A stretch of DNA of 64,000 bases from Deinococcales bacterium (GCA_025359505.1 JANYHH010000028.1:66134-130133); one strand, 5' to 3'; numbered from the stretch's first letter, positions 1 through 35,300 are shown. Program-made: numbers and translations. The notes: generated by a model from the sequence alone, not told the origin.

Positions 1-329
1 GCTTCGGCGGCGGGCTGACGTGGCGTTTGGCGACCGCCATGAGCGACCTGCGAGCGGCCGTGCCGTTCTACGGCCCATCGCCAGACATCGCAGCCGTCCC
101 CAACATCAAAGCGGCTGTGCTCGGCATTTACGGCGGGTTGGACGCCCGCATCAACGCGGGCATTCCGATGCTCGAGGAAGCCTTGAAAAAAGCTGGCACG
201 AAATACGCCATTAAAATTTACGACGGCGCGAACCACGCGTTCAACAACGATACGGGCGCGAATTACAAGAAAGACGCGGCAGATGACGCGTGGAAGCTGA
301 CGCTCGAGTGGTTCAAGAGCAACCTGTAA
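1..329 (+). CDS. dienelactone hydrolase family protein, C-terminal fragment (5' end outside window)
   Basis: The reading frame is open to the window edge. The C-terminus ...LGIYGGLDARI...YDGANHAFNND...AADDAWKLTLEWFKSNL is typical of DLH-fold hydrolases. Stop at 327-329, followed by a long hairpin. Confidence 0.7.
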   Translation, partial: FGGGLTWRLATAMSDLRAAVPFYGPSPDIAAVPNIKAAVLGIYGGLDARINAGIPMLEEALKKAGTKYAIKIYDGANHAFNNDTGANYKKDAADDAWKLTLEWFKSNL

Positions 330-334
330 AGGCA

Positions 335-400
335 GGCGAAGGGCAAAGTGCGAAGGGAACGGCTGGTTTTCCTTTCGCACTTTGCCTTTTGCCTTTCGCC
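335..400 (+). terminator. long imperfect hairpin after the hydrolase gene, built from the GGCGAAGGGCAAAG motif
   Basis: The left arm ggcgaagggcaaagtgcgaaggg (335-357) pairs with the right arm cctttcgcactttgccttttgcctttcgcc (371-400). There is no clear T-run, so the terminator role is inferred. Confidence 0.45.
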
Positions 401-422
401 CGCTCGAGGTAAACTGCACCCT

Positions 423-1505
423 ATGACGCTGACGCTCGAGAAACCGTCCCCGCTGCACGCTCGAGGTTTGATTCACCGTTGGCGCGACCGCCTGCCCGTC
501 ACGGACGCCACGCCGATCATCAGTCTGGGCGAAGGGGACACGCCGCTGGTGGAACTGCGCGGGCCGCCCGAGGCGAGGGAGCGCGGCATCAAGGTTTACG
601 CCAAGTACGACGGCGCGAACCCCACGGGCAGCTTCAAGGATCGCGGCATGACGATGGCCGTTTCTAAAGCGCTCGAGGGTGGCGCGACCGCCATTGCCTG
701 CGCCAGCACGGGAAATACCAGCGCGGCGGCCGCCGCCTACGCGTCGAGGGCGGGCGTGGAGTGCATCATCGTCTTGCCCGCTGGGTACGTCGCGGCTGGC
801 AAGATCGCGCAGACGATCCTGATGGGCGCGAAGATTGTTCAGATCGAGGGCAATTTCGACGATGCGCTCAGATTGGTGCGCGAGATGTGCGACTCGAGTC
901 CAGTAGCGCTCGTCAACTCCGTCAATCCATACCGCATCGAGGGTCAGAAAACCATCGCCTTTGAAATCTGCGACGAACTCGGCAGCGCCCCCGAGTACCA
1001 CGCCCTGCCGGTCGGCAACGCGGGCAACATCACCGCGCACTGGCAGGGCTATACGGAACTCTTCAACGACGGCACAACCTCGAGCCGCCCGAAAATCTTG
1101 GGGTTTCAAGCCGCTGGCGCAGCGCCGATCGTGCTCGGTCACGCCGTAGAAAAACCCGAGACGATTGCCACGGCGATTCGCATTGGCAACCCCGCGTCGT
1201 GGTGCTACGCGCTGATCGCAAGGGACGAGAGCAACGGAGTCATAGAGTCCGTGACCGACAATGAAATTCTCACCGCGTACCAATTTTTAGCCCGCGAAGG
1301 CTTGTTCTGCGAACCCGCCAGCGCCGCGAGTTTCGCCGGGGCAAGGCGGATGATCCGCGAGGGCAAGATTCCAGACGGCTCGAGGCTCGTGTGTACGCTG
1401 ACGGGGCACGGCTTGAAAGACCCCGGCACGGCCGGGAAATTGGCCAATCTGCCCGATGCCGTGCCAGCCACGCTCGAGGCGGTGATAAAGGCAGCGGGAA
1501 TCTAA
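423..1505 (+). CDS. thrC: threonine synthase
   Basis: Contains the PLP-lysine motif NPTGSFKDRGMT and a GNAGN loop, with full-length similarity to ThrC. I chose the ATG at 423 (MTLTLEK). The upstream part of ORF 348.. overlaps the preceding hairpin. Confidence 0.93.
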   Translation: MTLTLEKPSPLHARGLIHRWRDRLPVTDATPIISLGEGDTPLVELRGPPEARERGIKVYAKYDGANPTGSFKDRGMTMAVSKALEGGATAIACASTGNTSAAAAAYASRAGVECIIVLPAGYVAAGKIAQTILMGAKIVQIEGNFDDALRLVREMCDSSPVALVNSVNPYRIEGQKTIAFEICDELGSAPEYHALPVGNAGNITAHWQGYTELFNDGTTSSRPKILGFQAAGAAPIVLGHAVEKPETIATAIRIGNPASWCYALIARDESNGVIESVTDNEILTAYQFLAREGLFCEPASAASFAGARRMIREGKIPDGSRLVCTLTGHGLKDPGTAGKLANLPDAVPATLEAVIKAAGI

Positions 1506-1510
1506 AAGTA

Positions 1511-1647
1511 CCCCCCCTGCGAAGTAGGGGGGAAAGCCTCGAGCAAACTCGAGCTAGAGGGTCTTGCGGCGCGAGTACGAAACTGAGCGTCGCACGACCC
1601 CCAGCTGTTCCCGAAGGGAACGTGCTACCCCCTACTTCGCAGGGGGG
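1511..1647. mobile_element. MITE/SNR-like 137-bp structured repeat, copy L
   Basis: The termini are ccccccctgcgaagtagggggg and ccccctacttcgcagggggg (terminal inverted repeats, each itself a hairpin). There is an internal GTTCCCgaagGGAAC hairpin. The reverse complement is about 88-90% identical to copy R at 5761-5897. Confidence 0.8.
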
Positions 1648-1701
1648 TAACTCGGGCAGGCTCGAGGCTCGAGCGGCTTTGGTGCGTCTTGTACTGCATT
1701 C

Positions 1702-4700
1702 ATGGACGCGAACGCTGTTCGGCAGGCTTTACAGCAACTCGCGGACACCTTGGGGACGCGCAATCCGACCGAAGACGACGTTGAAAAAGGCTTCGTGGAT
1801 GTCTACCGCGCTCTGGGATACGCGACGGCGGGGCGAGATTACCGTAATAAATCCAGAGATGTCAGCGGCGTGCCAGATGTGATGTTGCACAATTCGGATC
1901 GTTCAATTCAGGTGATCGTCGAGCTAAAAAAGCCGACTGAGAATTTAGAGCAACACGAGAAGCAACTGGCAGACTACCTACTGTCCTTGCGCGAGGCACG
2001 TTGGGGCTTGTTGTCAAACGGTCACACATGGCGGGCGTATCAGCGTGACGGTAAAAGCGTGGATTTGGTCTGGCAAGCGACGTTAGCGGATTTGCAAAGC
2101 GAGCCGCAGCAGCTCGAAATTTTCGAGCGTCAGGTGATCGAGGTCACCAATTACGAGGAAATCGCCGAACGCTTGAACGAAGCCAACCGCGAGGGGTTGA
2201 CGCCGCAAGGTTTGAACGATCTGGCGACCGATGAGTTTCTGTTCACGTTCAGTTTGAAAGAGGGCAGTCCGTTCGCGGCGCTGGTCGGCGCGACGCAGGA
2301 CTTGCTGATTGCGCTCGAGCAGCAAAGCGATTTCGTGCACGGCGCGTATGACTTTTGGAAGAAAGCCTATGCCCGCGAAATTGATTCGGACGACATCCCG
2401 AAGCTTTGGCTGGGCAGTAAACTCAGCATTGTCGCCAGCAAAGAGGGCTTATACCGCTTCTCGTACAGCTTGGAAACGGCTTACACACTGACCGCGCGGC
2501 TGATTCTCGCCAAAGCGATTCAGGACAAAGACGTAACACACGCCGTCACCAAAACCAACCTAGCTGAGCGCTTGCTAGAACACCTCAAAACCAAACGCAA
2601 CTTACGTAATGTGCTTGAGCCAGAAGCGTATCTCGAGGCGACGAACGACCTGTTCGACGATTACGCCCGCACGCTCTTTACGAGCATCTACGCCAAGGAT
2701 ATTTTTGATTGGTGGCGCGATTACGGCGTGGCTGCCGACCAACCGCGCCGTGCGTTCGCTCGGGCCGTGGCGGATTTGGAGATTGCGCTGCTGCGCTTTG
2801 ATTTCCGCACCTTAGAGGGAGACCTGCTCGGGGAAATGTACCAACGCTACTTTGACGCCGATACCCGCAAAGCGCTCGGCGAGTTTTACACCCCGAAAGC
2901 CGTCGTGGACTTTATTCTGGATGAAGTTGGCTACGACGGTGACGGCACACTGCTTGACCCTGCGACAGGCAGCGGCACGTTCATCGTCAGTGCGTTGCGG
3001 CGTTACTTGAAGAAAAACTCGAGCAAAGACCCCGTGCAGACGCTGCGGGGCATCACCGAGCAGTTCAAGCTCGTGGCGTTTGATGTCAACCCCTTTGCCG
3101 TCATCATGGCGCAGATTGGTTTCGCATCGGAATTGCTACCGCTGTACGGCAAAGCGATTGCCACCGATCAAAACTTCGTGCTGCGCCGCCTACCAATTGT
3201 TCGCACAGATTCGCTGCGTAAGGAGATCGTCGAGGGCGAGCAGCAAGCCGAGGACGGTCAGCTCGGGTTCGCGTTCGAGGAGCGCGAGATCAAAGCCAAG
3301 CTCGAGTTACCCGTGAAAATCGGCACGGAGTTTCTGAGTGTCGAAGTCGTCTTCCCGCGTTTGGAGACCGCCAAGATGGATGGCGTGATCGCCAACGTGC
3401 GGCAGTGGCTGCAAGCCTTGCAAGGCGTCTTTGCGGCCGTGGAAGTGCTGTCGCAAGCTAAGGACAGGGGGCAGAAGTTGCCCAAGATCGCCACGGAGTT
3501 AAAGCACCAATTCGCCGCTCAGCACGCCAGCCCCGAAAAATTAGTCGCGTACCTCGAGCCATATGCGAGCGGTGTGTGGAAGACGCTGCTGGACTTAAAA
3601 GAGAACCACGGTGACGGGCGGTTTCTGAAAACCTTAGAGGATTTGATGCTCGGCTTGGTCTTAAAGCACTACATGCGTTACGACTTCGTGGTCGGCAATC
3701 CGCCTTACGTGCGCGTGCAGAACATCCCAGATTTTCAGCGACGTTACTGGGAAAGTAAATACGCGTGGGTAGAGAAGAACTTCGATATTTTCATTCCGTT
3801 CATCGAACGATCCTTGCACGGCGACACCCGCCAAACGGCTGCGGAATCGTGCTGGCTCGAGGAGGGAGGGCGACTGGGCTTCATCGTGCCAAACCGTTTT
3901 ACGAACGTGGAGTACGCCAGTCGCTTCCGTGGAGGATTGCCGCATACCGCCAAGGTCATCAGCATCACGGATTTCAAAGCGGTGAAATTTAAGCCGGTGA
4001 TCGCCAAACCCGCTGAAAGCATCTTCGCGGAAGCCAGCGTTTACCCCGCGATTCTGATTGCCGAGAACACCACGCCCGAGGCCGCGTACACGTTTCGCGC
4101 CGCACGAATGTACCCAGTGGACGCCAGCATCACCCCGACCGACGCGCTGGCGGCGATCAGAAAAGCCAGTCCGACGGGCGCGAATAGCTCGAGACTGCTA
4201 TCAGGCGGTGCGGAGTACGCCGATGTCTTCTTGCAAGACAGTTCGCACTTGCAGGGCAAAGGCTGGTTTTTGATGCCGAGCGACGAACGCGCCGTGTTCG
4301 ATAAACTCGAGGCGATTGCGGGCAGCCACGACAAGGCGTTGCCGATCAGCACGGATCGCACGCGGCGTTTGGAAAACTACACGACGACCTCGAGCGGCGG
4401 GTTTGCAGGAATTCAAACTTCACTCGATGACGTGATGGTTTTGAAGGAACTCGAGCGCGACGACATCAAAGGATTCATCAACGTCTATCCAAAGGGCGGC
4501 ACATCCAAAGACGCCGTGTGGCTCGAGGCGGCAGCGCTGCGACCGTTCGTATTCGGGCGCGACGTACAGCGTTGGAACGTCGGCTGGGAAAACTGGTGGG
4601 TGATCTTCCCGTATTTCCAGCACGAGGGCGCGGTGCTGCTGATGCCCTGCGCGGATTACTGGGATTTTGAGGTGATGACCGGACGCGGCCCGAACGCTAA

Positions 4701-5727
4701 ACCGCGCCGTGTGTTCAATGCCGAAAAGTACCCCGATCCCAGCCCAATGATGAACGAAATGTACCCAAAGCTCTGGGCGTATTTGAAAAAGAACGAAGTC
4801 GCTCTACGCGTTCGAGAAAGCGGCAAGTTCAAAGTTGGCAAACTCGAGGAATGGAAATGGTACGACCTCGCTTATCCACGCAGTCTTGCCGAAGCAGGCT
4901 CATCGAAAATACTCGGGCAGTTGCTCGCGGAAAAAGCCCAGTTTGCTGTAGAAGACGAAGGCGATATTTACTTTCAAGGTGGCGGCAAAGGCGGCGGCGC
5001 ATACGGAATCGCGCTCATCTCGAAACTCGAGAAACACTTCGTCACTGGCTTGCTCAACAGTTACTCGCTCGATTTTCACTTGCGTCAACTCAGCAGCACC
5101 TACGCGGGCGGATTTTACTCTTACGCCGACGCATTCTTGAAAGACTTACCGATTCCAGACGCCTCCAAAAAAGATCAAAACCGCATTGCTAAACTCTCCC
5201 AAACCCTGACCACGCACACGGCATCGGCTCGAGCGCTCGAGAAAGACATCGCTGGCTTCCCCGAGAGCGTTAACGCTCAACGCCGTGCGGCGGGCAACGT
5301 CCCCGATTTAGACAGCTTAGAAAATTTGCTAAGTGGCAGCGGCGGCTTGACCAGCGAACTGAAGTGGCACAGCAAAACCAGCCTGAGCCAAGATCTGATG
5401 GGCGAATGGGTGCTGAGCATCCCACGCGGCAAAAGCGCCACCACTGAACTCAGAGCGGGCAGTCAAACTCTGCTCGAGCTGACCAAAGCGGCATTACTCG
5501 AGCGTGGCAAGATCGGCAGGAGCGACCTTTTGGCGTTGCGCGTCCCTGAAAAAACGGCCGCGCAACGCCAATACTTAGAAACGCTGCAAAACTGGAAAAC
5601 CACGCTCGAGACCACCCGCGCCCAGATTCGCACGCTCGAGAGTCAACTCAACGACATTGTGTACACCGTGTTCAACCTCACCAAAGCCGACCGCAAAGTG
5701 ATTGAAAGCTTCCTCGAGCGATTCTGA
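1702..5727 (+). CDS. Type IIG/IIL restriction-modification enzyme (fused PD-(D/E)XK nuclease, gamma-class N6-adenine methyltransferase and target-recognition region)
   Basis: N-terminal nuclease motif VPDVML...IQVIVELKKP (PD...ExK). SAM motif I LDPATGSGTF (about 2953-2982). Catalytic motif IV VVGNPPYV (about 3688-3711). The C-terminal ...NDIVYTVFNLTKADRKVIESFLERF helix is typical of the Eco57I/TaqII-like family. No separate R, M or S partner genes are present. Confidence 0.88.
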   Translation: MDANAVRQALQQLADTLGTRNPTEDDVEKGFVDVYRALGYATAGRDYRNKSRDVSGVPDVMLHNSDRSIQVIVELKKPTENLEQHEKQLADYLLSLREARWGLLSNGHTWRAYQRDGKSVDLVWQATLADLQSEPQQLEIFERQVIEVTNYEEIAERLNEANREGLTPQGLNDLATDEFLFTFSLKEGSPFAALVGATQDLLIALEQQSDFVHGAYDFWKKAYAREIDSDDIPKLWLGSKLSIVASKEGLYRFSYSLETAYTLTARLILAKAIQDKDVTHAVTKTNLAERLLEHLKTKRNLRNVLEPEAYLEATNDLFDDYARTLFTSIYAKDIFDWWRDYGVAADQPRRAFARAVADLEIALLRFDFRTLEGDLLGEMYQRYFDADTRKALGEFYTPKAVVDFILDEVGYDGDGTLLDPATGSGTFIVSALRRYLKKNSSKDPVQTLRGITEQFKLVAFDVNPFAVIMAQIGFASELLPLYGKAIATDQNFVLRRLPIVRTDSLRKEIVEGEQQAEDGQLGFAFEEREIKAKLELPVKIGTEFLSVEVVFPRLETAKMDGVIANVRQWLQALQGVFAAVEVLSQAKDRGQKLPKIATELKHQFAAQHASPEKLVAYLEPYASGVWKTLLDLKENHGDGRFLKTLEDLMLGLVLKHYMRYDFVVGNPPYVRVQNIPDFQRRYWESKYAWVEKNFDIFIPFIERSLHGDTRQTAAESCWLEEGGRLGFIVPNRFTNVEYASRFRGGLPHTAKVISITDFKAVKFKPVIAKPAESIFAEASVYPAILIAENTTPEAAYTFRAARMYPVDASITPTDALAAIRKASPTGANSSRLLSGGAEYADVFLQDSSHLQGKGWFLMPSDERAVFDKLEAIAGSHDKALPISTDRTRRLENYTTTSSGGFAGIQTSLDDVMVLKELERDDIKGFINVYPKGGTSKDAVWLEAAALRPFVFGRDVQRWNVGWENWWVIFPYFQHEGAVLLMPCADYWDFEVMTGRGPNAKPRRVFNAEKYPDPSPMMNEMYPKLWAYLKKNEVALRVRESGKFKVGKLEEWKWYDLAYPRSLAEAGSSKILGQLLAEKAQFAVEDEGDIYFQGGGKGGGAYGIALISKLEKHFVTGLLNSYSLDFHLRQLSSTYAGGFYSYADAFLKDLPIPDASKKDQNRIAKLSQTLTTHTASARALEKDIAGFPESVNAQRRAAGNVPDLDSLENLLSGSGGLTSELKWHSKTSLSQDLMGEWVLSIPRGKSATTELRAGSQTLLELTKAALLERGKIGRSDLLALRVPEKTAAQRQYLETLQNWKTTLETTRAQIRTLESQLNDIVYTVFNLTKADRKVIESFLERF

Positions 5728-5760
5728 ACTTGACCTCGCTGCGAAGCAGTGAAAAAGTCA

Positions 5761-5897
5761 CCCCCTGCGAAGTAGGGGGTAGCTCGTTCCCTTCGGGAAC
5801 GGCTGGGGGTCGTGCGACGTTCAGTCTCAAACTCTCGTCGCACGACCCCCCTAGCTCGAGCGAAGCTCGAGGCTTTCCCCCCTACTTCGCAGGGGGG
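5761..5897. mobile_element. MITE/SNR-like 137-bp structured repeat, copy R (inverted relative to copy L)
   Basis: Same terminal hairpins as copy L. It contains a perfect 15-bp internal stem (GGGGGTCGTGCGACG ... CGTCGCACGACCCCC), a GTTCCCttcgGGAAC hairpin and a CTCGAGcgaagCTCGAG pair. It ends 7 nt before the DUF559 ATG. Confidence 0.8.
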
Positions 5898-5904
5898 TAC
5901 ATTG

Positions 5905-6303
5905 ATGGCTATGAAGACGTACACTCGCGCCCTCATTCCTCGAGCGCAGCAGATGCGGCGTGAGATGACCAAAGCTGAGGCGCGGCTTTGGTTTGAGGTG
6001 CTGCGTGATTTTGAGCCTCGAGTACGGCGGCAGCGTCCGATTGGTGGGTTCATCGCAGATTTTTACTGCGCGGCTTGCAAGGTCGTGATTGAGGTAGATG
6101 GCGATTCGCACTTTACGCCAGATGGTCTGCATTACGACGCGCAGCGTACGGCGTTACTCGAGGGGCTGGGGTTGCGGGTACTGCGGTTTTCCAACGCGGA
6201 TGTCTTTGAGAATCTGCACGGTGTGACTGTGCAAATCATTGAGGTTTTGCAAAAAGACCAATCGAGCGTATCCACACTCAATCCTCGAGCAGCCCCGCTG
6301 TGA
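5905..6303 (+). CDS. DUF559 endonuclease-domain protein (Vsr-like fold)
   Basis: MTKAEARLWFEVLRD...RRQRPIGGFIADFYCAACKVVIEVDGDSH...DAQRTALLEGLGLRVLRFSNADV matches the DUF559 signature. I chose the ATG at 5905, because the upstream ORF part (5812-5904) merely translates the MITE. Confidence 0.8.
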   Translation: MAMKTYTRALIPRAQQMRREMTKAEARLWFEVLRDFEPRVRRQRPIGGFIADFYCAACKVVIEVDGDSHFTPDGLHYDAQRTALLEGLGLRVLRFSNADVFENLHGVTVQIIEVLQKDQSSVSTLNPRAAPL

Positions 6304-7891
6304 TGCGCCAGACCAACTCTGGCAACTCCCCGAAACTGTACGGCATGTACGCCCGCTCGAGCCACTGGTGGTAATCGCGTCCCCACGGGCCAAGGTTGAT
6401 GCACGGCAGGTTGGCAGGCGGCGCGGTGATCTGCGCGTTCGGCGCGGGCGTGTTGGCGTTGACCACACCAATCTGGGCTGCATCGCCGCGCCCGAACCAG
6501 CTCATATCACTGATGCCCATGAAGTAGCGGCGCTCAGCGATGCTGCTGGGGGCGGTCTCGAGGACTTCGCGCACGACGCGCATCATCTTCGCGTCGCTGG
6601 GGACGGTTTCATCTAAGATCGTGCTGGGGTAATGCAAGGAGCCAAAGCTCAGCACAACGGCTGGCCCCAGTAAGCCTGCCTTGTCCCACAGCCAGTTGAT
6701 GATGGTCAAGGATTGCGTGGCGAGCGCGGTCTGCGCGTCAATGGTCTCGAGGTGCTGGGCGAAATCAACTTCAAAGCCGGGGGCGCTGTTGGCGCGGGCA
6801 GCCTCAAGCAGTTCTGCGTAATTCAGCACCAATCCTGTAGAGCTGTGAGCGGCGGAGTCAAACCGTCCAAGCGCTTCGGCGCGGGTTCGCAACGTCTCCA
6901 ACGCGGCCTCGAGCGCTGATGTTGCCTCGTGGGTGAAATCTGTCAGCACTGCGCTGGCAGATTTGCCGTGCATCGGCGCGTTGAAGCACGCCCACGCTCG
7001 TGCGGGCGTAGTCACGTCGTAATGGGTTTTCAGATCGGTTTGGCGCAAGTTCGTCGGCGGCGTGCCAATCTCCCCTTTCGACTGGTCGGTCAGCCGTGGA
7101 TTGCCCTCGAAATGGTGCGTGATCGCCGAGGCGATAAAATTGGCGTTGATGCCGTCCAATGCGTAGCCCGCGTGGACATCCGCGCCGACGCAGAACGCGC
7201 AGACCAGCAGCTTGCCGACGCTGCCCAAGTAGACCGCTCGCCCGTCCGTGCCATCGCCGCTGTCGCTGGTCGCGTCCAGATTGATCACGCCGACAATCTC
7301 GAGGTCGTGTTTTGCTGCCCACTTCAGCAGTTCTGGTGCGGCAGCCCGTGCGCCGTGCGATTGGTCTTCCTCGTCGGCGACCGCGACGAACAGGATGTTG
7401 CCAACGCGGGTCTCGAGTGCTGCGAATTTGTACAGCGCGACCAGTCCGGCCGCTAAGCCCGCTTTCATGTCCAGCAAGCCGCGACCGGGCAGGAAATCGC
7501 CGCCCTCGAAGTCAGCCAATGCGCGGCGCTCAGGCTCAGTGCGGGCGTTGACACGCAGATCGGCAATCAGGCGCGGCAGCAATGCTTCAGGGTCGAACGC
7601 GTAGTCTTGGTGCGATCCGTAATTGCCCACGCTGACCACATCGAAATGCCCCGTCAGCACCACGGTTTCGCGCCCAGTCCCTCGAGCCAAGGCGTAAACG
7701 TTACTGCGGCGTTGCGGATCGCCTTTGATTTCCCCGACCCAAACCTGATCGGGGTGCGCCGCAAAGTATGTATTTCTCAAAATAATGTCGTGCAACACGC
7801 TCGGAAAGGCGCGTTCGCCATCGGTATTGGTGACGCTCGAGGCTCGCACCATTTCCACGGTCAGCGCCCTCGCCAGCTCAAAATCGGTCAT
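6278..7891 (-). CDS. M20 family metallopeptidase (ArgE/DapE/RocB-like)
   Basis: 537-aa ORF with VVLTGHFDVV and FVAVADEEDQSHGA metal-ligand regions typical of M20. ATG at 7889-7891. Confidence 0.8.
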   Translation of the reverse strand: MTDFELARALTVEMVRASSVTNTDGERAFPSVLHDIILRNTYFAAHPDQVWVGEIKGDPQRRSNVYALARGTGRETVVLTGHFDVVSVGNYGSHQDYAFDPEALLPRLIADLRVNARTEPERRALADFEGGDFLPGRGLLDMKAGLAAGLVALYKFAALETRVGNILFVAVADEEDQSHGARAAAPELLKWAAKHDLEIVGVINLDATSDSGDGTDGRAVYLGSVGKLLVCAFCVGADVHAGYALDGINANFIASAITHHFEGNPRLTDQSKGEIGTPPTNLRQTDLKTHYDVTTPARAWACFNAPMHGKSASAVLTDFTHEATSALEAALETLRTRAEALGRFDSAAHSSTGLVLNYAELLEAARANSAPGFEVDFAQHLETIDAQTALATQSLTIINWLWDKAGLLGPAVVLSFGSLHYPSTILDETVPSDAKMMRVVREVLETAPSSIAERRYFMGISDMSWFGRGDAAQIGVVNANTPAPNAQITAPPANLPCINLGPWGRDYHQWLERAYMPYSFGELPELVWRITAGLLED

Positions 7892-7948
7892 GCGGGTGAG
7901 TCTAGCTCGAGGGGCGGGATTGTCTCGAGTTCAGTGCAGTGGTGACGC

Positions 7949-8392
7949 TCATCGCGTGCCAGCATCGCGCAGCAGGGCGAGCAGTTCGCCCGGCCGGATC
8001 ACGGGGATCGCAATGCCGCTGGGGTGTTGAAACGCTCTCTGGGTGAGCAAATCGTCATCCAAGGACACCAGTGTGTCGGCGTGACTCGAGATCGCCAACG
8101 CCACCAGAAAATCATCATTCCTGTCTCTTGTTACCGCCATGGGATTCGGCTGCTCAGGGTAAATCTCAGTCGCGTGCGCGAAGGCTGAGATGGCGCGGTG
8201 GGGTTGCGGAAGCGCAAATCGCGCACACAACTTGGGTTTTTGCAAACTCGCCAGCAACTCCTCAAATAGCCCTTGCGAAGCGATCACGTCAATCAACGCT
8301 TACTCGTACCACAGTCGCAGGCACTCGCCAGAACCGCCTTTGGGATTAAGCAAACCCGCCACGAAAACGCTGGTGTCCAGCGCGACCCTCAA
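7949..8392 (-). pseudogene. PIN-domain toxin (VapC/TIGR00305-like) interrupted by an in-frame TAA
   Basis: Reading the minus strand from TTG at 8392-8390 gives LRVALDTSVFVAGLLNPKGGSGECLRLWYE, then TAA (8302-8300), then ALIDVIASQGLFEELL...DRNDDFLVALAISSHADTLVSLDDDL in the same frame. The conserved PIN acidic residue (LDTSV) lies upstream of the stop. Confidence 0.7.
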
Positions 8393-8625
8393 CGCGAGGC
8401 TCGAGCAGAAGCGGTTTCCGGCTGAGGCTTTGCGCGTTCGCGGCGCACAGAGCGCACCGTGACCACCGCCAGCCGATCCGCTTCGTCACCTGTCAACTCG
8501 AGGTGCGAGAACGACGCTTGCAGGTCTTTCAAAGCGTTCAACCCGAGGTATTCGCGCAGCGCGGTTTCGATCAACGATTGATCGGTCATGCCTTGCCGCA
8601 CGGCCGCCAAGCGGTAGGCCCGCAC
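8389..8625 (-). CDS. ribbon-helix-helix (CopG/VapB-like) antitoxin, possibly N-terminally compromised
   Basis: ...YRLAAVRQGMTDQSLIETALREYL is RHH-like. The stop TGA overlaps the toxin TTG (TTGA). The expected RHH beta-strand KVTLNLASDV is encoded in-frame upstream of the first usable start (GTG at 8625). There is no ATG, GTG or TTG between it and the upstream TAA (8688-8686). Confidence 0.6.
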   Translation of the reverse strand: MRAYRLAAVRQGMTDQSLIETALREYLGLNALKDLQASFSHLELTGDEADRLAVVTVRSVRRERAKPQPETASARASR

Positions 8626-8726
8626 GACATCGCTGGCGAGGTTGAGTGTGACTTTTTGTTTTGGTGAAGTAACCGTAAAACCAGTTTACCAGCAAAAATT
8701 GCGAAACTGTCTCGGGAGCAATCGCG

Positions 8727-8969
8727 GTGAAAGCAATGATGTACAGTTTGAAAATGATAAAAACTTACGCCGCACGAATCCACAACGGCTTAGTGGAACT
8801 GCTCGAGCCTACACAACTCACTGAATCCAAACGGGTCTTGGTCACGGTGCTGGATGATGTCGTTTCGCCTCGAGTCCAATCGAAATACGCAGGGGCGTTC
8901 TCGAGCGGTCATTCCGACACGGCTGAGCGTGTGGCTGATGCACTGAACGAACTGGGATTCGCTGAGTGA
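8727..8969 (+). CDS. DUF104-like small antitoxin-family protein (orphan)
   Basis: AARIHNGLVELLEPTQLTESKRVLVTVLDD resembles the DUF104/AF2212-like pattern (IYENGVxxPLExxxLxEGxRVxI). The start is uncertain (8727 or 8754), there is no clear SD, and no toxin follows it. Confidence 0.4.
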   Translation: MKAMMYSLKMIKTYAARIHNGLVELLEPTQLTESKRVLVTVLDDVVSPRVQSKYAGAFSSGHSDTAERVADALNELGFAE

Positions 8970-9027
8970 TGGATTTTTTGACACTGCCCTGTGACCAATT
9001 CGTTTGACGAACCTAGCGAACTCAAAA

Positions 9028-10149
9028 TCATCCTGTCATCACCAGCCGCTCGAGCGCGTCCTTGAGCACGCGAATCGCGCTCAGGTACTCGTCGATCTCC
9101 AATCGTTCGGTCGGCGTGTGATCCAAGGTTGAATCACCGGGCCCATACGCCAGTATCGGGCAGCCCCACAGCGGCGCGACGACGTTCATGTCGGCCGTGC
9201 CGGTCTTCAGCGTCAATTGCGGCGTGATGCCGTGCTGCCGCATGGCCACGCGAAACGCCCTCGTCAGTGGCGTGTCCTTCGCGCCTCGGTACGGCTCTTC
9301 CCTGCCCGTGTAACTGATCCGCAACGCGTTCAGCCCCTGCTCTAAGCGCACGCGCTCGAGTTCGCGCATGGCTTCGTCAGGCCCCAGTCTGGGTGGTAGG
9401 CGTAAGCCGATCACCGCTTCGCAGCCTTGGCGCAGACCATCGTTGCTGCTGCTGATGCCCTGAAGCGCGACTTGCACGCTGTCGAACAGGCGTTGCCCAT
9501 CGTTGAAGCCACTCGCCCAGTTCTGGAGCGCCGCGAAGTAACGAATCATGTCCTCGGGTGCGGTGGTGTCGTTGCCCGCGCTGTGAAAGTTGTCTTTCTC
9601 CAAGCGAGCCTTGACGACCAAGCGCCCTTTGTAGCCGAGCGTGATCGTGTCATAGCCGCTCGGCTCGCCGATCAAGCAGTGGTCGGGGCTGAATTTGCTG
9701 ATCGCGTGATGAGCGCCTTTGGACGACGCGGCTTCCTCTTCGACCGCGCCAACGCAAATGAACCGCGCCCGCTCGAGGATATGATCTGGCAACAAGCTGA
9801 CCGCCGCCAAGAACGTGCAGAACGGGCCCTTGGCGTCCACGCTGCCGCGCCCCCACAGCTCGAGCTTGCCCGCATCGTTTCGCTCAATTCGCACGGGAAT
9901 CTCGCCGGGTACGGTGTCAATATGTCCGAGCAGCACAATCTCTTTTGGCCCAGTGCCGCGCACACCGACCGCACTGCCCGCGCCGTCCATCTCGGCTTTG
10001 AAACCGCGTTTGTGCATCCAGCGCACGAAGAAGCGGCTGACATCGGCTTCCTGCGTGCTCAGGCTCTGGATCTTCACCGCCTCGCGCAGCAACTCAATGA
10101 AATCGCGCTCGGTCGCGCTGTACGGCTCGAGGAGGAGGAGGTCGTTCAT
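9028..10149 (-). CDS. lysK: [LysW]-lysine hydrolase / acetylornithine deacetylase-type M20 enzyme
   Basis: [17 protein letters not shown]...[20 protein letters not shown] matches LysK/ArgE of the Thermus-type AAA lysine pathway. ATG at 10147-10149 ([10 protein letters not shown]). Confidence 0.75.
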
Positions 10150-10221
10150 GCGCTCGAGAATACCCTGAGTGTTCAAAGGGCATGGCATCGCCTTGACGCA
10201 CCACACCGTAAGATTACAGGC

Positions 10222-11382
10222 GTGCAACGCAACATCAGCTTGACGCCCGTCATCACCGCTTCCACGTATCTGGGGATGGTCAGCATCGGCGCGGTGGGCG
10301 GCTCGTATGGCGCGGCGCTCGAGGTGCTGCGGGCAACGTTCGGCGTGGGTGACGCGCAGCTTGGCTTGCTGGGAACGGCGCAGACGGTCGGGGGACTGCT
10401 GGGGAATCTCAGCTCAATACCACTCGAGCGTATCCTCACCGCCGGGCAGCGATTGTGCGTTGGCGGTCTGGTGTTTGCCTTCGGCGCGGTTTGCTTCGCG
10501 CTTTCAGCGAAATTTGAGCTGGCGCTGCTGGCGCTGTTGACGATGGGGCTGGGGATGGGCTTATTTCAGATCAACTTTTCCAGCCTGTACTCCAGAGGCT
10601 TCGGGGTGCGCTCGGGCGCGGTGATGGCGGTGATGAGCAGCGCCTTCGCGGTCGGCAGCATCGCGGGGCCGGTCATGGCGGCGGCGCTCACCACCAATTA
10701 CCGCCTCTTACCGATTGGTTTCGGAGTGCTGAGCGCGGTGCTGGCCGCGATGCTACTCACGGCCCGCGACACCAGCCACGCTGCTCCCTCGAGCCATCCG
10801 CCCGCCAAGCTCGAGGGAGCAGCGTGGCTGTTTGGGCTGATGGTCTTTTTTTACGTGATGGCGGAGCAGGGCGCGTCGTTCTGGGGCGTCGCGCATTTGG
10901 AGAGCCTCGGAGTCAAACACGAGGCGGCGGCACTGGTGATGTCGCTGTTCTGGGCGGGGTTGCTGATCGGGCGCTTCGCGGGCGCGGCGCTGAGCCTGAA
11001 ATACTCCAGCCGCACGATGATGCTGGGTAGTGCGGCGGGCGCGACGCTGTGCTTCGCGGTGTCTCACGTGCCAGCGGTGGCGGGAGCAGCCTACATCGCG
11101 GCTGGTTTGTGCTTCGCTACCGTGTTCCCCACCGGGCTGGTCTGGCTGGCGCGGTTCAACCCGAGCAGCCAAGCGATCACGCTGTACTTCGTCGCGGGTT
11201 CAGTCGGCGCGGCGCTGGGCTTGCCGCTGATCGGGGCGCTGAAAAACCTCTTCGGTGCGAGCGCGATTCCGACCGCGCTGACCGTCTCGAGCGGCTTGTG
11301 TCTACTGACGATCTACGCGATTGGAATGCGTCAGCCGCAAGACGATGCGGCCCGAGCAGCCAGACTAGAATCCGTCGCATGA
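10222..11382 (+). CDS. MFS transporter (12-TMS type)
   Basis: Hydrophobic, multi-TMS translation from [23 protein letters not shown] onward. GTG at 10222 is the first start beyond the antisense overlap with lysK, so the exact start is uncertain. Confidence 0.7.
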
Positions 11383-32339: not shown

Positions 32340-35300
32340 TTACGTGGCCCAGCCGACCAGTAGCTCAAAATCCTTTTGCGCTTGGCTGAAAATCCGACTG
32401 TAGACGGCCATGTCTTCCAGTTGCACGACGATGGTGTATTGCGCGATTTCGCCTTCGTTCGGGCGCAAGTACAGCGCCAGCGCCGCGCCGCCCGCGTATT
32501 CGACGGTGTATAAGCGCACGGGTTTGCGTTTGAGTTCGCGGGCGAGTTCTAAATTGTAACGCTCGACCTCGAGCAGCAGCTTGCCGAGTGCAGCCGGATC
32601 GCTAACGTTGCCTTGCTCCAAAGTCCCGTTTTTCATCAGGGCGACGCGTCCAACGCCGCGCTCGCGGCTGAGCGCAGCGATCCACATGTGCAGCGGGTTG
32701 TCGGTATCGGTGGTGATCGGTTCGGCGGGCAGGCTGGCTGGTGCTTGGATCACCTCGAGTGGTGATTTGACTGAGATCTCGGCAGCGGGTGAGACGACCT
32801 TTTTCTGCATTGGCCCCAGCACACCCAGCAGATCGTCGATCTGACCACTGTCTTGCAGCGCGGCCGCTACAGCGCTGGCCGCTTCGTACTCCTGACGGGC
32901 GGTGACGAGCAGACGCTCGGCTTCCTCGAGCGTGCGCGTCAAACGCAGGCGCGTGTCGACCAAGATTCGCCCGGCGGGTTCGGCGCTGAGCACGCTGGCG
33001 AGCTGCCCGAGTTGGCGCGTCGTCTCGCCGCCCAGTGCGCGGTAACTGCCTGCCTCTGCCAGCACCGCTTCAGTGCGGGTGCGCCACTCGGAGCGCAATT
33101 TATCTTCCAACACGCGCAGCCCCTCCAACTTGTCCCACGCGGCGGACAGATTGATCAACTCGCCGCGCTCGTGCTGCATGCGAGCGGTGCTCAGGTTTTC
33201 TAGCAGCGGTCGGGCTTCGGGCAGCGGGGTGTACTCGCGCACCGCGTTCTCCAACTCGCTCAGCTCGCGCTGCTGCGCGTTGAGTCTGGCTTCGCGTTGC
33301 GCCCGCAGGCTGCCCTCTAAGCTATTCAAATCCGGGAAGCTGCCGTGCTCCAAATCTTCGTGGGCGGTGTTGATGTCCTCGATCAGTTCAGAAGCGCTGA
33401 TTTCGCGGGCGCGAATCTCCAAATCATCAAGTTTTGCGGTGAACAGCGTGGCGGCCGAGCCGCGCACCGTCTCGAGCTGCGATTTGAAGCCGTCGATCAG
33501 CTCACTAATGAACTCCCCGCGCTCCAAGCGAGCGCTGGCGGTGCTGAACTGCTCTTCCAAAGCGATCATGGTGCTGTTCAACTCCGGCAGGTCAGGCAGT
33601 GCAGCCAACGTTAAACGCATGGCCCGCATCGCGCCGGACTCGCGGCCCAGTTGCACGCGGCGCTCGTTCTCCAAACGCTCGGCTTCGCGCTGGGCTTCGA
33701 TGCGCTGGCGCTCTTTGTCCAAGCGCTCGGCTTCCAACTTCGCGGCCGCCTCGGCTTGCAGGCGCTTTTCTAACTCTACCCGCGCTTTTTCCTCGAGCGC
33801 CACGCGCTCGCTCTCCAAGCGCTGGGCTTGGAGACGGGCGCGTTCGAGCGCCTCTGCCCGCTCCTGCTCCAAGCGCTCGGCTTCGAGCTGCGCGTCCGCT
33901 TCGGCCTTGCGCTTCAGCGCAGCCTCGGCGCGTTCGCGCTCCAAGCGCTCAGCTTGGAGCTGGGCCTGCTGGGCGGCTTGCATGCGCTCCTGCTCCAAGC
34001 GCTGCGCGGCGGCCGCGGCCGCCGCCCGTGCGTCGGTCTCAGCTTTCAGACGCGCCTCGTCCTCCAAGCGCAAGCGCAGCGCCTCAGCCGCCCGCTGGCG
34101 CTCCACTGCTTCACGTTCGGCGGATAAATGTGCCTCGAGCGCCGCTTCCAAGTGGGTCAACGTCTCGCTCAAGGTTTTGGTCAAGTCGTCGCGCAGGTGA
34201 AACGCGGCCACTTCACGCTCGAGTTCCTCCAAATGATGCTGGAACTCCAGCACTGGTTTACCGAGCACCGTGAAGCTCGGCAGGGCGCTTTTGAACTCGT
34301 TGTACATGCCCTGCTGACGCAGCAAGGCCCGCTCGAGCCGCACCACGTCCTCGGCCGCCACGCGCTCGCGCTCCTCGAATTGCCTGTCCAGCGTCCGCAA
34401 GCTGTCCTCGAGCTTGCCCAGATCCTCGCTGGCCAGTGCGCCGCTCAAAGTTGTTCCCTGCGCGACGCTCAAGTTCAGGCGGGCATCGCCGACATCCAAA
34501 CCCGACTCTCCGAGTAAATCCAGTCGCGGGCCGATCTCGCTCAAACGGCGCTTCTGGCGCTGCAATTCAATCTCGCGCAGCTCCAATAACCCCGATCTAA
34601 AGTTGTGCAGATCGTCTTGCAGGACTTGCCCGCTGCGGTTGCGATTTTGGAGCGCCGCAAATTGCGTGGCCGCGAGTGGGTTAACAATCAGCACACCGCG
34701 ATACTCGGCTTCTAAACTCTCCAGCGCCCGTGTTTCCTCGGAGAGTTCGATCTCTTTAACGCGCTCGGATTGCTCTGGGGTCAGTTCCAGATCTGGGAAT
34801 TCAAATTCGATGTCCAGCATCGAATCTTTGACTGACACATCCTCCAGAAAAACGATGCTCTGCGCGGCATGCGGCGCGAATTCGACCTCCAAGATTTCGC
34901 CCGTGCCCTTGCCGGGTGCGGGTGGGCGCGGCTCTTGAACCGTGATCTCATCGTCCAGTTCCGCCGGCGAGAGGTTGACGACGCTCGATTCGACAAGTTT
35001 ACGCAAGTCGACCACCAATTTACGGGCGCGTTCGACCTCGGCCGGAGCGAGCGTCGCGCTGCCCTGCGCGTCAACGATCTGATCGATCAATGTCTCCAAG
35101 CGCTTGACGCGTGGGCCGCCCATCGTCCGCACGCGGTCAAAGCCGCCCTGCAACTCTGCGATGTCCTGCGCTTGGCGCACCAGCAGATCCTGCAATTTGC
35201 GCTCCAAAGCCTCGAGCTGCGCCCCGGCGTCGCGCTGCAACTCCGGCGCATCGCGCCCGAGGGCTTGCTGCTCGCGCAGCACGCTCAGTTGGCTGCGAAA

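Follow-up and report, generated by a model that had tools for sequence, protein, structure and literature searches.

Structured inverted repeats beside thrC in an uncultured Deinococcales bacterium and their link with a DUF559 nuclease gene

The thrC locus and its two repeat units

The DNA considered here is a window of 64,000 nucleotides from a Deinococcales bacterium (GCA_025359505.1 JANYHH010000028.1:66134-130133; positions are counted from its first letter). Just beyond the threonine synthase gene thrC, it carries a Type IIG restriction-modification (RM) gene lying between two inverted copies, L and R, of a short structured repeat, with a small gene of the DUF559 nuclease family following the second copy. 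These repeat units, and their link with the last gene, are the subject of this analysis. The host lineage is uncultured: the ThrC protein is 95, 94 and 88% identical to proteins from uncultured metagenome bins, the best cultured matches being Marinithermus (72%) and Thermus (69%). The GC content is 60% and the oligonucleotide signature unusual; the organism is not Deinococcus radiodurans, the species invoked for comparison in the initial annotation. Loci that hold the full-length element are labelled as Deinococcales metagenome-assembled genomes (MAGs). The features of the locus are as follows.

423..1505, plus strand: thrC (threonine synthase), left border gene of the island; Pfam PALP, E = 3e-74, homologues of 360 amino acids
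1506..6277, no strand: strain-variable island (L, RM gene, R, DUF559) of 4,772 bp between two convergent stop codons, from the empty-site alignment
1509..1649, minus strand: repeat unit L, inverted; covariance model R1, 89.8 bits, E = 6e-17
1512-1531 / 1628-1647, minus strand: arms of stem P1 in L, enclosing P4' (~1535-1555), P3' (~1557-1601, degenerate stem) and P2' (~1602-1626)
1702..5727, plus strand: Type IIG RM gene of 1341 amino acids, cargo of the island; Pfam, PADLOC
5758..5900, plus strand: repeat unit R; covariance model R1, 98.8 bits, E = 8e-19
5761-5779 / 5878-5896, plus strand: arms of stem P1 in R, enclosing P2 (5781-5804), P3 (5805-5850) and P4 (5853-5874)
5905..6303, plus strand: DUF559 (Vsr / I-Bth0305I-like PD-(D/E)XK) endonuclease gene, likely start 5911; Pfam DUF559, E = 5e-28
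6278..7891, minus strand: M20 peptidase gene, right border gene of the island; Pfam Peptidase_M20, orthologue at 9084-10697 in the related locus L125

The initial gene calls for ThrC, the Type IIG enzyme and DUF559 are upheld by Pfam and PADLOC, and the placing of L and R in the two intergenic gaps that flank the RM gene, with the spacings first given, is confirmed on the sequence. The thrC stop at 1505 is followed after 5 nt by L, R begins 33 nt past the RM stop, and the end of R at 5897 precedes the ATG at 5905 by 7 nt. Both units are confined to these gaps (1506-1701 and 5728-5904), and none of the six-frame open reading frames (ORFs) crossing them has homologue support. As had been estimated by hand, the two are inverted copies about 90% identical, with 91% column identity in a MAFFT alignment and 89% identity over 137 nt by BLAST; a repeat search of the window resolves them into inverted arms of 88 nt (1559-1646 / 5761-5848, 90% complementary) and 33 nt (1512-1544 / 5865-5897, 100% complementary). 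The units are 137-143 bp long and bounded by perfect terminal inverted repeats of 19-22 bp, whose 19-mer CCCCCTACTTCGCAGGGGG is present once at each of the four unit ends and nowhere else in the 64 kb (0.01 occurrences expected by chance). A covariance-model scan of the window likewise returns L and R as its sole matches. At a permissive threshold, Rfam gave only chance miRNA-like matches between 1300 and 6400 and no family that fits the units, and no direct repeats flank L, R or the whole L-RM-R block in the window sequence.

In the minimum-energy fold, the two termini of a unit pair with each other to form a stem of 19-20 bp, P1, which closes a four-way junction with three internal hairpins. 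With its 3' flank (5757-5935, the first ~35 nt downstream), R folds as RNA at -110 kcal/mol (z = -10.5), and the R unit alone as DNA at -63 kcal/mol (z = -14); the corresponding z values for L are -7 as RNA and -11 as DNA. The perfect 15-bp stem first noticed in R is found at 5805-5819 / 5836-5850, its counterpart in L being degenerate, and the GTTCCC..GGGAAC hairpin is present as described. The termini had been taken for inverted repeats that are themselves hairpins: the former holds, over 19-22 identical nucleotides, whereas the self-hairpins are weak alternatives at about -7 kcal/mol and not the main fold.

A repeat family across phyla and its probable nuclease companion

The earlier view of L and R as hairpin-rich and resembling miniature inverted-repeat transposable elements (MITEs) proved sound, for they are members of a multi-copy family in related genomes that resembles MITEs and repetitive extragenic palindromes (REPs). 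The 17-mer terminus CCCCTACTTCGCAGGGG was scanned over one genome per GTDB species and is matched in at least 120 stretches. By our own estimate, about 70 matches would arise by chance in the 596 Gb; those found concentrate in certain genomes, mostly as forward/reverse (A...B) pairs 85-240 nt apart. Contigs with the terminus number at least 15 in one Deinococcales MAG, at least 25 in one Dyella MAG and at least 14 in one Verrucomicrobiaceae MAG, and the family ranges over Deinococcales, Verrucomicrobiaceae, Dyella, Burkholderiales, Spongiibacteraceae and Desulfuromonadales as structured, palindromic units of 85-240 bp. Most Deinococcales copies lie between A-runs (AAAA/GTCA...GTAC/AAAA). Orthologous positions keep their units between related genomes (L043/L096 and L057/L092), which indicates slow turnover. 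A search of a plasmid collection with R gave no match, and a scan of viral contigs gave three, which we judge to be at chance level without a computed expectation, so that a phage vector is unsupported.

Units from Deinococcales, Verrucomicrobiaceae, Spongiibacteraceae and Burkholderiales align on a common plan of terminus A, P2, P3, P4 and terminus B. The terminal inverted repeat, CCCCCTGCGAAGTAGGGGG with its complement, is invariant over 17-22 bp and is predicted to pair as P1 in every unit, while P3 always opens with GGGG(G)TC and closes with GACCCC. The tetranucleotide GTAG is invariant in the terminus, yet lies inside the hairpin CCCCCTGCGAAGTAGGGGG, spanning loop and stem. RNAalifold returns a four-way junction with compensatory changes in 14 of 36 pairs. 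After trimming of the alignment, each of the nine P2 and P4 pairs has changed on both sides and covaries. Shuffled alignments reach a covariation score of 0.121, the real one 0.254; paired cells amount to 95.6%, compared with 88% after column shuffling and no more than 62% with the partners slid. P1 and the base of P3, being invariant, are neutral on structure and instead reveal strong sequence constraint across phyla. The covariance model R1, built from 16 units, recovers complete units in most of the 120 loci, many of which contain one exact terminus only.

Two further arrangements were met in the sampled loci. In Meg19_1012_Bin_198, an unclassified MAG, the terminus hairpin is repeated in tandem every 32 nt (hairpin plus GTACTACAAGAT), and further arrays have a period of ~150 nt (L003:7620-7790 and L060:829-1310), both arrangements being reminiscent of bacterial interspersed mosaic elements. 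Relatives also contain, in nested position, another and very small repeat, ~35-40 nt long and built of CG, a short stem, GCCCGYCAGGTGC, the complementary stem and CAAGA(A)G, at L073:68-104, L048:1592-1680, L117 (reverse complement, ~4130-4170) and L127:9115-9190 and in L023, L005, L087 and L114. In four cases the GTAG and GGGG of terminus A flank it immediately on either side; elsewhere it follows CGAG or GAAG, and in L127 it is in tandem. It was found in Deinococcales loci, with one further, chance-looking match within an RM-orthologue locus (L217), and is absent from the window. Such site-specific insertion 3' of ..AG recalls the targeting of IS200/IS605-type elements. The latter and their gene-less derivatives (PATEs) share with the present family subterminal hairpins in place of classical flat inverted repeats, the absence of an evident target duplication and, through the nested mini-repeat of relatives, a position exactly 3' of the tetranucleotide GTAG; they differ in that no TnpA (Y1) or TnpB gene is associated with the units, whose ends are symmetrical.

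The repeats go with the DUF559 gene and not with the RM gene, which is the strongest link at the locus and one that the initial annotation had missed. The conserved start of the DUF559 protein is probably the second ATG, at 5911 (MKTYT...), according to the homologue alignment. The protein matches PDB entry 3hrl at E = 3e-16, and an AF2 model (pLDDT 86.5) matches 3hrl, 3r3p (I-Bth0305I, TM 0.83) and 1cw0 (Vsr). Residues E61, D63 and H67 are invariant in 36 homologues; sequence and model agree on a Vsr-like PD-(D/E)XK nuclease fold, for which cleavage activity is predicted. PADLOC does not list the window's DUF559 as a defence component.

When the hairpin loci were searched by tblastn with this protein, homologues 49-76% identical were found, every one directly beside hairpins. 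Homologues next to the same hairpins lie in L130, L017, L004, L070 and, from the metagenome scan described below, L133. In L017 (Desulfuromonadales) the gene is flanked by 58-nt direct repeats that hold the terminus, in L004 (Comamonadaceae) its stop codon is the TAG of GTAG within terminus A, and in L070 (Burkholderiales) it stands between A-P2-GAGGGGT and CCCCTCC-P4-B, which corresponds to the position of the P3 loop in gene-less units. Units may thus be upstream of DUF559, downstream of it or around it, and in either orientation, varying by lineage. Clustering of the ORFs within 250 nt of a hairpin left DUF559 as the sole genuine gene family recurring in different loci and phyla, the larger clusters being translations of the repeat DNA itself. 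The linkage of unit and DUF559 is in this way shown across six lineages. DUF559 proteins found at the same hairpin are mostly mutual best matches, with the exceptions of L132 (60%, different loop) and L070 (49%, same loop), and co-variation of protein and hairpin is therefore suggestive only.

The association extends to repeats of other sequence. A metagenome contig scan, with alignment of DUF559 proteins, gave 80 loci, one of which (L133) has the same terminus. For the 59 genes with enough flank, a significant repeat common to the two flanks of 300 nt was sought, with displaced controls of equal size from the same loci: such repeats occur at 45 of the 59 genes (34 inverted, 11 direct) and at 4 of 103 controls. 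The flanks carry C-run/G-run hairpins of the form CCCCC T...A GGGGG, the stop codon often lying in the first hairpin, and the covariance model gives weak matches directly beside DUF559 in a dozen metagenome loci that lack the exact hairpin. Close homologues number 425 proteins at E <= 1e-10, many of them on contigs shorter than 2 kb, as is expected for repeat-flanked genes; a DUF559 protein 85% identical to that of the window is encoded on the closed chromosome OZ252252.1. In agreement, DUF559 genes are 14-fold enriched among genes touched by inverted repeats (Milman et al.; PMC9881135).

The E. coli member, ycjD (37% identical; L212, K-12 NC_000913, 11200-11470), ends inside a C/G-run hairpin that is repeated, inverted, 154 nt downstream, and a 39-nt, 90% copy of its 3' end lies 106 nt downstream; parts of its flanks recur elsewhere, the median being 4 sites in each genome. 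The order fabI-ycjD-sapF is complete in 3346 of 5426 E. coli genomes. As a test of mobility the gene proved uninformative: in O157:H7, the sole incomplete genome inspected, different genes follow fabI on the strand to which the match was oriented, and no clean excision is seen. Another idea, that the terminus is a Vsr substrate, was prompted by a Vsr-like G.T wobble in its self-hairpin (GTAGG over CCTGC) and was set aside, as other DUF559-flanking hairpins are perfect or otherwise mismatched.

Units of this kind invite comparison with REPs and their doublets (REPINs), which are reportedly served by a REP-associated tyrosine transposase (RAYT, or TnpA-REP), as Nunvar in 2010 and Bertels and Rainey in 2011 are said to have described. 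Common to both are two inverted GC-rich GTAG hairpins ~100 nt apart, a long hairpin-like fold, many gene-less intergenic copies per genome, a small nuclease gene flanked by the same repeats and persistence at orthologous sites, as is seen in vertically persistent REPINs. GTAG-tagged REPs, moreover, form superfamilies in Proteobacteria, Cyanobacteria, Chloroflexi and the PVC group (Di Nocera, 2013; PMC3733652). That the units are ordinary REPINs mobilised by a RAYT (an HUH Y1 transposase) encoded elsewhere, with DUF559 as a mere frequent neighbour or cargo, is nevertheless unlikely. No RayT-like ORF was found in the window or in 217 loci, a single E. coli RayT query giving no tblastn match better than E = 3 in these 1.19 Mb, and the ORFs beside hairpins contain no RAYT-like cluster, whereas DUF559, a Vsr-like PD-(D/E)XK protein and not an HUH tyrosine transposase, recurs among them and is generally repeat-flanked. 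The GTAG of the present units lies within the hairpin instead of forming a 5' tag, the 17-22 nt terminus is identical across phyla while REP sequences are usually lineage- and RAYT-specific, and a four-way junction with three covarying internal hairpins takes the place of a simple doublet.

Bacterial MITEs, such as the Correia/NEMIS elements of Neisseria and the small non-coding repeats (SNRs) of D. radiodurans, resemble the units in being small, non-coding, structured and multi-copy, with terminal inverted repeats and positions near gene ends; they differ in that here no target-site duplication was found and no DDE transposase has the same termini, the DUF559 nuclease being the only recurrent partner. 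The SNRs, reportedly described by Makarova et al. in 2001, also belong to a different organism. The DUF559/Vsr fold itself is that of a known homing endonuclease (PMC3424549) and is shared both with Vsr-like, EDxHD homing endonucleases (I-Bth0305I; Dassa, 2009, PMC2677866; Taylor, 2011, PMC3239194) and with Vsr-like repair nucleases such as Caulobacter VsrA (PMC12907096), all small selfish or repair nucleases. Known homing enzymes reside in introns or inteins and not between dispersed hairpin repeats, and the partners of Vsr-type enzymes are cytosine methyltransferases, unlike the RM gene next to DUF559 in the window, which is of the N6-adenine type. In the searchable literature no described partnership of DUF559 with cross-phylum four-way-junction repeats was found, and full-text searches for the terminus and for DUF559 with repeats returned nothing relevant.

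The stability of the folds raises the question of benefit to the host, namely that the units are kept as RNA or DNA structures serving as 3'-end stabilisers, terminators or insulators, or as a 5' leader that controls DUF559, their spread being secondary. The z values of -7 to -14, the compensatory changes in P2 and P4, and the positions of L 5 nt after the thrC stop and of R 33 nt after the RM stop all agree with such a role, as does the retention in L130 of a unit before DUF559, and REP-like 3'-end protection is possible. Terminator-like hairpins with T-runs do occur at the left ends of both units (1533-1511 and 5781-5759), though they are confined to the minus strand. In the direction in which thrC and the RM gene are read, no T-run comes after the structure of either L or R, which are accordingly not canonical terminators for these genes, and the termination on both sides envisaged in the initial annotation is unsupported. 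Its proposal that the G-run of R gates translation of DUF559 fares better in part: the sole Shine-Dalgarno-like sequence before the ATG at 5905 is buried in the very stable P1, but regulated opening is not indicated. Rfam offers no matching family, the varying position and orientation of units around DUF559 suit no single cis-regulatory role, relatives manage without a unit at thrC, and single-stranded DNA intermediates would produce covariation equally well. Host benefit as the primary explanation is hence improbable.

The variable island and its restriction-modification cargo

Comparison with relatives defines the island in which the units of the window are found. In L125/L126, whose ThrC is 95% identical, the thrC stop directly abuts the stop of the M20 peptidase gene: window positions 1-1504 and 6280-7941 align to the adjacent stretches 7579-9082 and 9086-10747, with nothing between, and window 1506-6277 is absent. 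The borders of the empty site are 1505/1506 and 6277/6278, the right one lying 380 bp outside R and taking in DUF559, so that L, the RM gene, R and DUF559 together form one variable island whose right edge is beyond R. The initial suggestion of an L-RM-R insertion is in this respect half right, the block being absent from a close relative and the indel extending further than the block. In L127-L129 (ThrC 94%) a remnant of the hairpin, namely the first half of terminus A as far as GTAG, comes after the thrC stop, and ~280 nt of small repeats of unrelated sequence separate it from the peptidase gene. In L130 (ThrC 88%) a complete unit lies 6 nt after the thrC stop and DUF559 (76% identical) 15 nt past the unit; the RM gene is absent and the genes beyond DUF559 differ. 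Relatives with ThrC identities of 85% and 82% have other neighbours at thrC and lack the unit.

R and DUF559 are collinear with their counterparts in L130, with 76% nucleotide identity over 5806-6204, from which it follows that a unit-DUF559 module at the end of thrC predates the RM insertion. L is 90% identical to R, while R is 72% identical to the L130 unit over the aligned stretch, and L is therefore either a younger copy or homogenised with R. The island has a GC content of 56.4% against 60-62% in its flanks and bears the oligonucleotide signature of the host (CTCGAG at 6 per kb; CCWGG 0 against 13 expected), so that it is either long resident or derived from a similar donor. The last ~17 codons of the DUF559 ORF (6250-6303) are without counterpart in homologues and share 26 nt with the convergent peptidase gene at its 3' end. 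In many other lineages a second unit is present in the native 3' flank of the module, a flank apparently lost here at the edge of the island.

The RM gene itself is cargo of the island. Its Pfam domains are Eco57I and N6_Mtase, with weak HSDR_N_2, MmeI_N and TaqI_C, and PADLOC assigns it to REase_MTase_IIG at E = 2e-32, from which a single-polypeptide Type IIG enzyme is predicted, in which a nuclease at the N terminus is followed by an N6-adenine methyltransferase and, at the C terminus, by a specificity domain. Orthologues 72, 72, 71 and 61% identical (loci L122/L123, L124, L216 and L217) occupy four settings: between a short-chain dehydrogenase gene and a diacylglycerol kinase gene, beside Fic, beside an HTH gene pair and beside HicB-PIN. 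None of these four contexts contains a unit; the gaps are too short for one, and the covariance model gives no match. The gene moves among loci in the manner of defence genes and not with these repeats.

These observations bear directly on the composite element first proposed, in which L and R would be the terminal inverted repeats of a transposon-like RM unit that moves whole and is mobilised in trans. A defence gene bracketed by inverted copies ~90% identical, in a region missing from a close relative, is indeed a known kind of pattern: RM units, Type IIG included, have been described between imperfect long inverted repeats and absent from a related genome; their repeats are found at the unit alone, 8 bp of target are duplicated at its borders, and the empty site corresponds to the repeat ends (Furuta, Abe and Kobayashi, 2010; PMC2853133). 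None of these last three features is seen here. The repeats belong to a multi-copy family, no direct repeat surrounds the block, and the indel ends at 6277 with DUF559 included, and not at the outer end of R (5897-5900). To this may be added R with DUF559 at thrC without the RM gene in L130, the four RM orthologue contexts free of units, and the orientation of the units, whose ends facing the RM gene are those that face away from DUF559 in the R-DUF559 and L130 modules. L and R as arms of a composite element are thus highly improbable, and the bracketing of the RM gene is best regarded as incidental, the island having formed beside a repeat module. Scarcely credible is an inversion switch, in which L and R would recombine so as to turn the RM gene round with respect to a promoter outside it (thrC read-through) and give phase-variable restriction. 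In its favour are the 137-bp inverted repeats, 90% identical and matching perfectly over 33 bp, the stretch from L to the RM start, in which no sigma-70-like promoter was detected, the 16-fold enrichment of Eco57I-type genes in predicted targets of programmed inversion (PMC9881135) and an independent Logan contig that breaks exactly at the repeats. Against it, the Pfam annotation of the island reveals neither an invertase nor a recombinase gene; the Type IIG inversions known exchange specificity domains via repeats in coding sequence instead of flipping whole genes; the 33-nt exact repeat, with family k-mers shared at k = 31, accounts for the contig breaks; and one orientation only is seen (window and Logan contig).

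The contig in question, SRR20627842_683349 (L121), is an independent assembly of the RM gene, 100% identical to window 1512-5781; it begins at the first base of the terminus of L and ends 21 nt into R, breaks attributable to the 33-nt perfect inverted core and shared k-mers, and is uninformative on orientation.

Several other properties of the window were recorded. A second block absent from L125, at 7942-9032 between two M20 peptidase genes, contains a PIN-domain ORF (7949-8296, minus strand) and small antitoxin-like ORFs (8389-8625, minus strand; 8727-8969, plus strand), and is probably a toxin-antitoxin insertion. The XhoI site CTCGAG occurs 419 times in the 64 kb, or once per 153 bp, against 21-26 expected, and is 6 to 140 times as frequent as any one-base variant. 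It is found at 4-10 per kb in every Deinococcales MAG locus fetched and in no other phyla, the dense loci, in addition to the window, being L005, L008, L020, L023, L039, L048, L054, L122-L131 and L213-L217. CTCGAG is a lineage-wide, HIP1-like, highly iterated palindrome, for which a literature search combining the motif with 'highly iterated' found no paper. Other palindromes are avoided in the window (observed/expected: GCGCGC 0/46, GGCGCC 0/46, CTGCAG 0/21, GAGCTC 0/21, GACGTC 0/21, AGGCCT 0/21, CCWGG 1/206 and GGWCC 1/206). The avoidance is strain-specific, L125 having 36 CCWGG in 17 kb and L130 41 GCGCGC, and L122 and L124 avoiding GATC instead, a pattern suggesting that many of the lineage's restriction systems turn over rapidly. 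Finally, imperfect direct repeats (CGCTC..CTCCAAGCGCTCGGCTTCGAGCTG..) at 33661-34031, spaced by multiples of 6 nt (48-96 nt), probably belong to a minus-strand gene region that encodes a repetitive coiled coil.

Interpretation and significance

Taken together, the evidence favours the reading that L and R are gene-less copies of a structured-repeat family that accompanies a clade of small DUF559 (Vsr / I-Bth0305I-like) nucleases, R and DUF559 being one module and the RM gene a later cargo, and we regard this as probable. A unit-DUF559 module would have been the earlier occupant of the 3' end of thrC; the Type IIG gene, either with the second unit L or followed by it, would later have landed between thrC and R to give the 4.8-kb variable island. 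The nuclease may recognise the invariant termini or the folded unit, cut units and so drive the persistence or spread of gene-less copies, and in mRNA containing R the P1 stem would lock the ribosome-binding G-run of DUF559 and keep the nuclease low. Mobilisation of the repeats by DUF559 would, by analogy, resemble that of REP/REPIN by RAYT or the relation of a homing endonuclease to its site.

Some points weigh against this reading. To our knowledge, a PD-(D/E)XK nuclease alone cannot perform strand transfer, and the inverted position of L beside thrC is not accounted for. Turnover is slow, the orthologous pairs found all keeping the unit, and no single-unit presence/absence or empty site was found among the loci sampled. 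The 64-kb window contains two unit copies only, and among the Deinococcales loci sampled DUF559 stands beside a unit only in the window and in L130, the rest being gene-less. The search for RAYT, furthermore, consisted of one E. coli query on sampled 8-kb stretches.

The DUF559-repeat partnership can be viewed as a variation on the REP/RAYT and MITE theme, with a real, unproven chance that it is distinct. More tentatively, and with considerable doubt, it may be proposed that the DUF559 clade and its four-way-junction repeats make up an undescribed class of selfish element, in which a PD-(D/E)XK nuclease, and not an HUH or DDE transposase, maintains and spreads gene-less repeats. Such a class would span at least five phyla (Deinococcota, Pseudomonadota, Verrucomicrobiota, Desulfobacterota and Cyanobacteriota), and possibly extend to gut Bacillota and E. 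coli ycjD. In an extreme variant, the nuclease might use the structured unit as its RNA or DNA cofactor; the DUF559 stop codon overlaps the first hairpin in many lineages, which recalls how omega-RNA and TnpB are arranged.

For the annotation of this genome, the RM gene is to be seen as island cargo beside a module and not as part of a self-contained transposon, and the repeat pair is no sign of RM mobility. For the family, the consequences are broader. DUF559 is among the commonest unexplained small bacterial nuclease families and includes E. coli YcjD and the solved structure 3hrl, without assigned function; with repeat bracketing above chance, gene-less copies in several phyla, and invariant termini joined to compensatory internal hairpins, its function becomes directly testable. 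If the nuclease does cut and mobilise the unit, this would constitute a second nuclease-and-repeat symbiosis beside that of RAYT and REPIN, built on a different catalytic fold.

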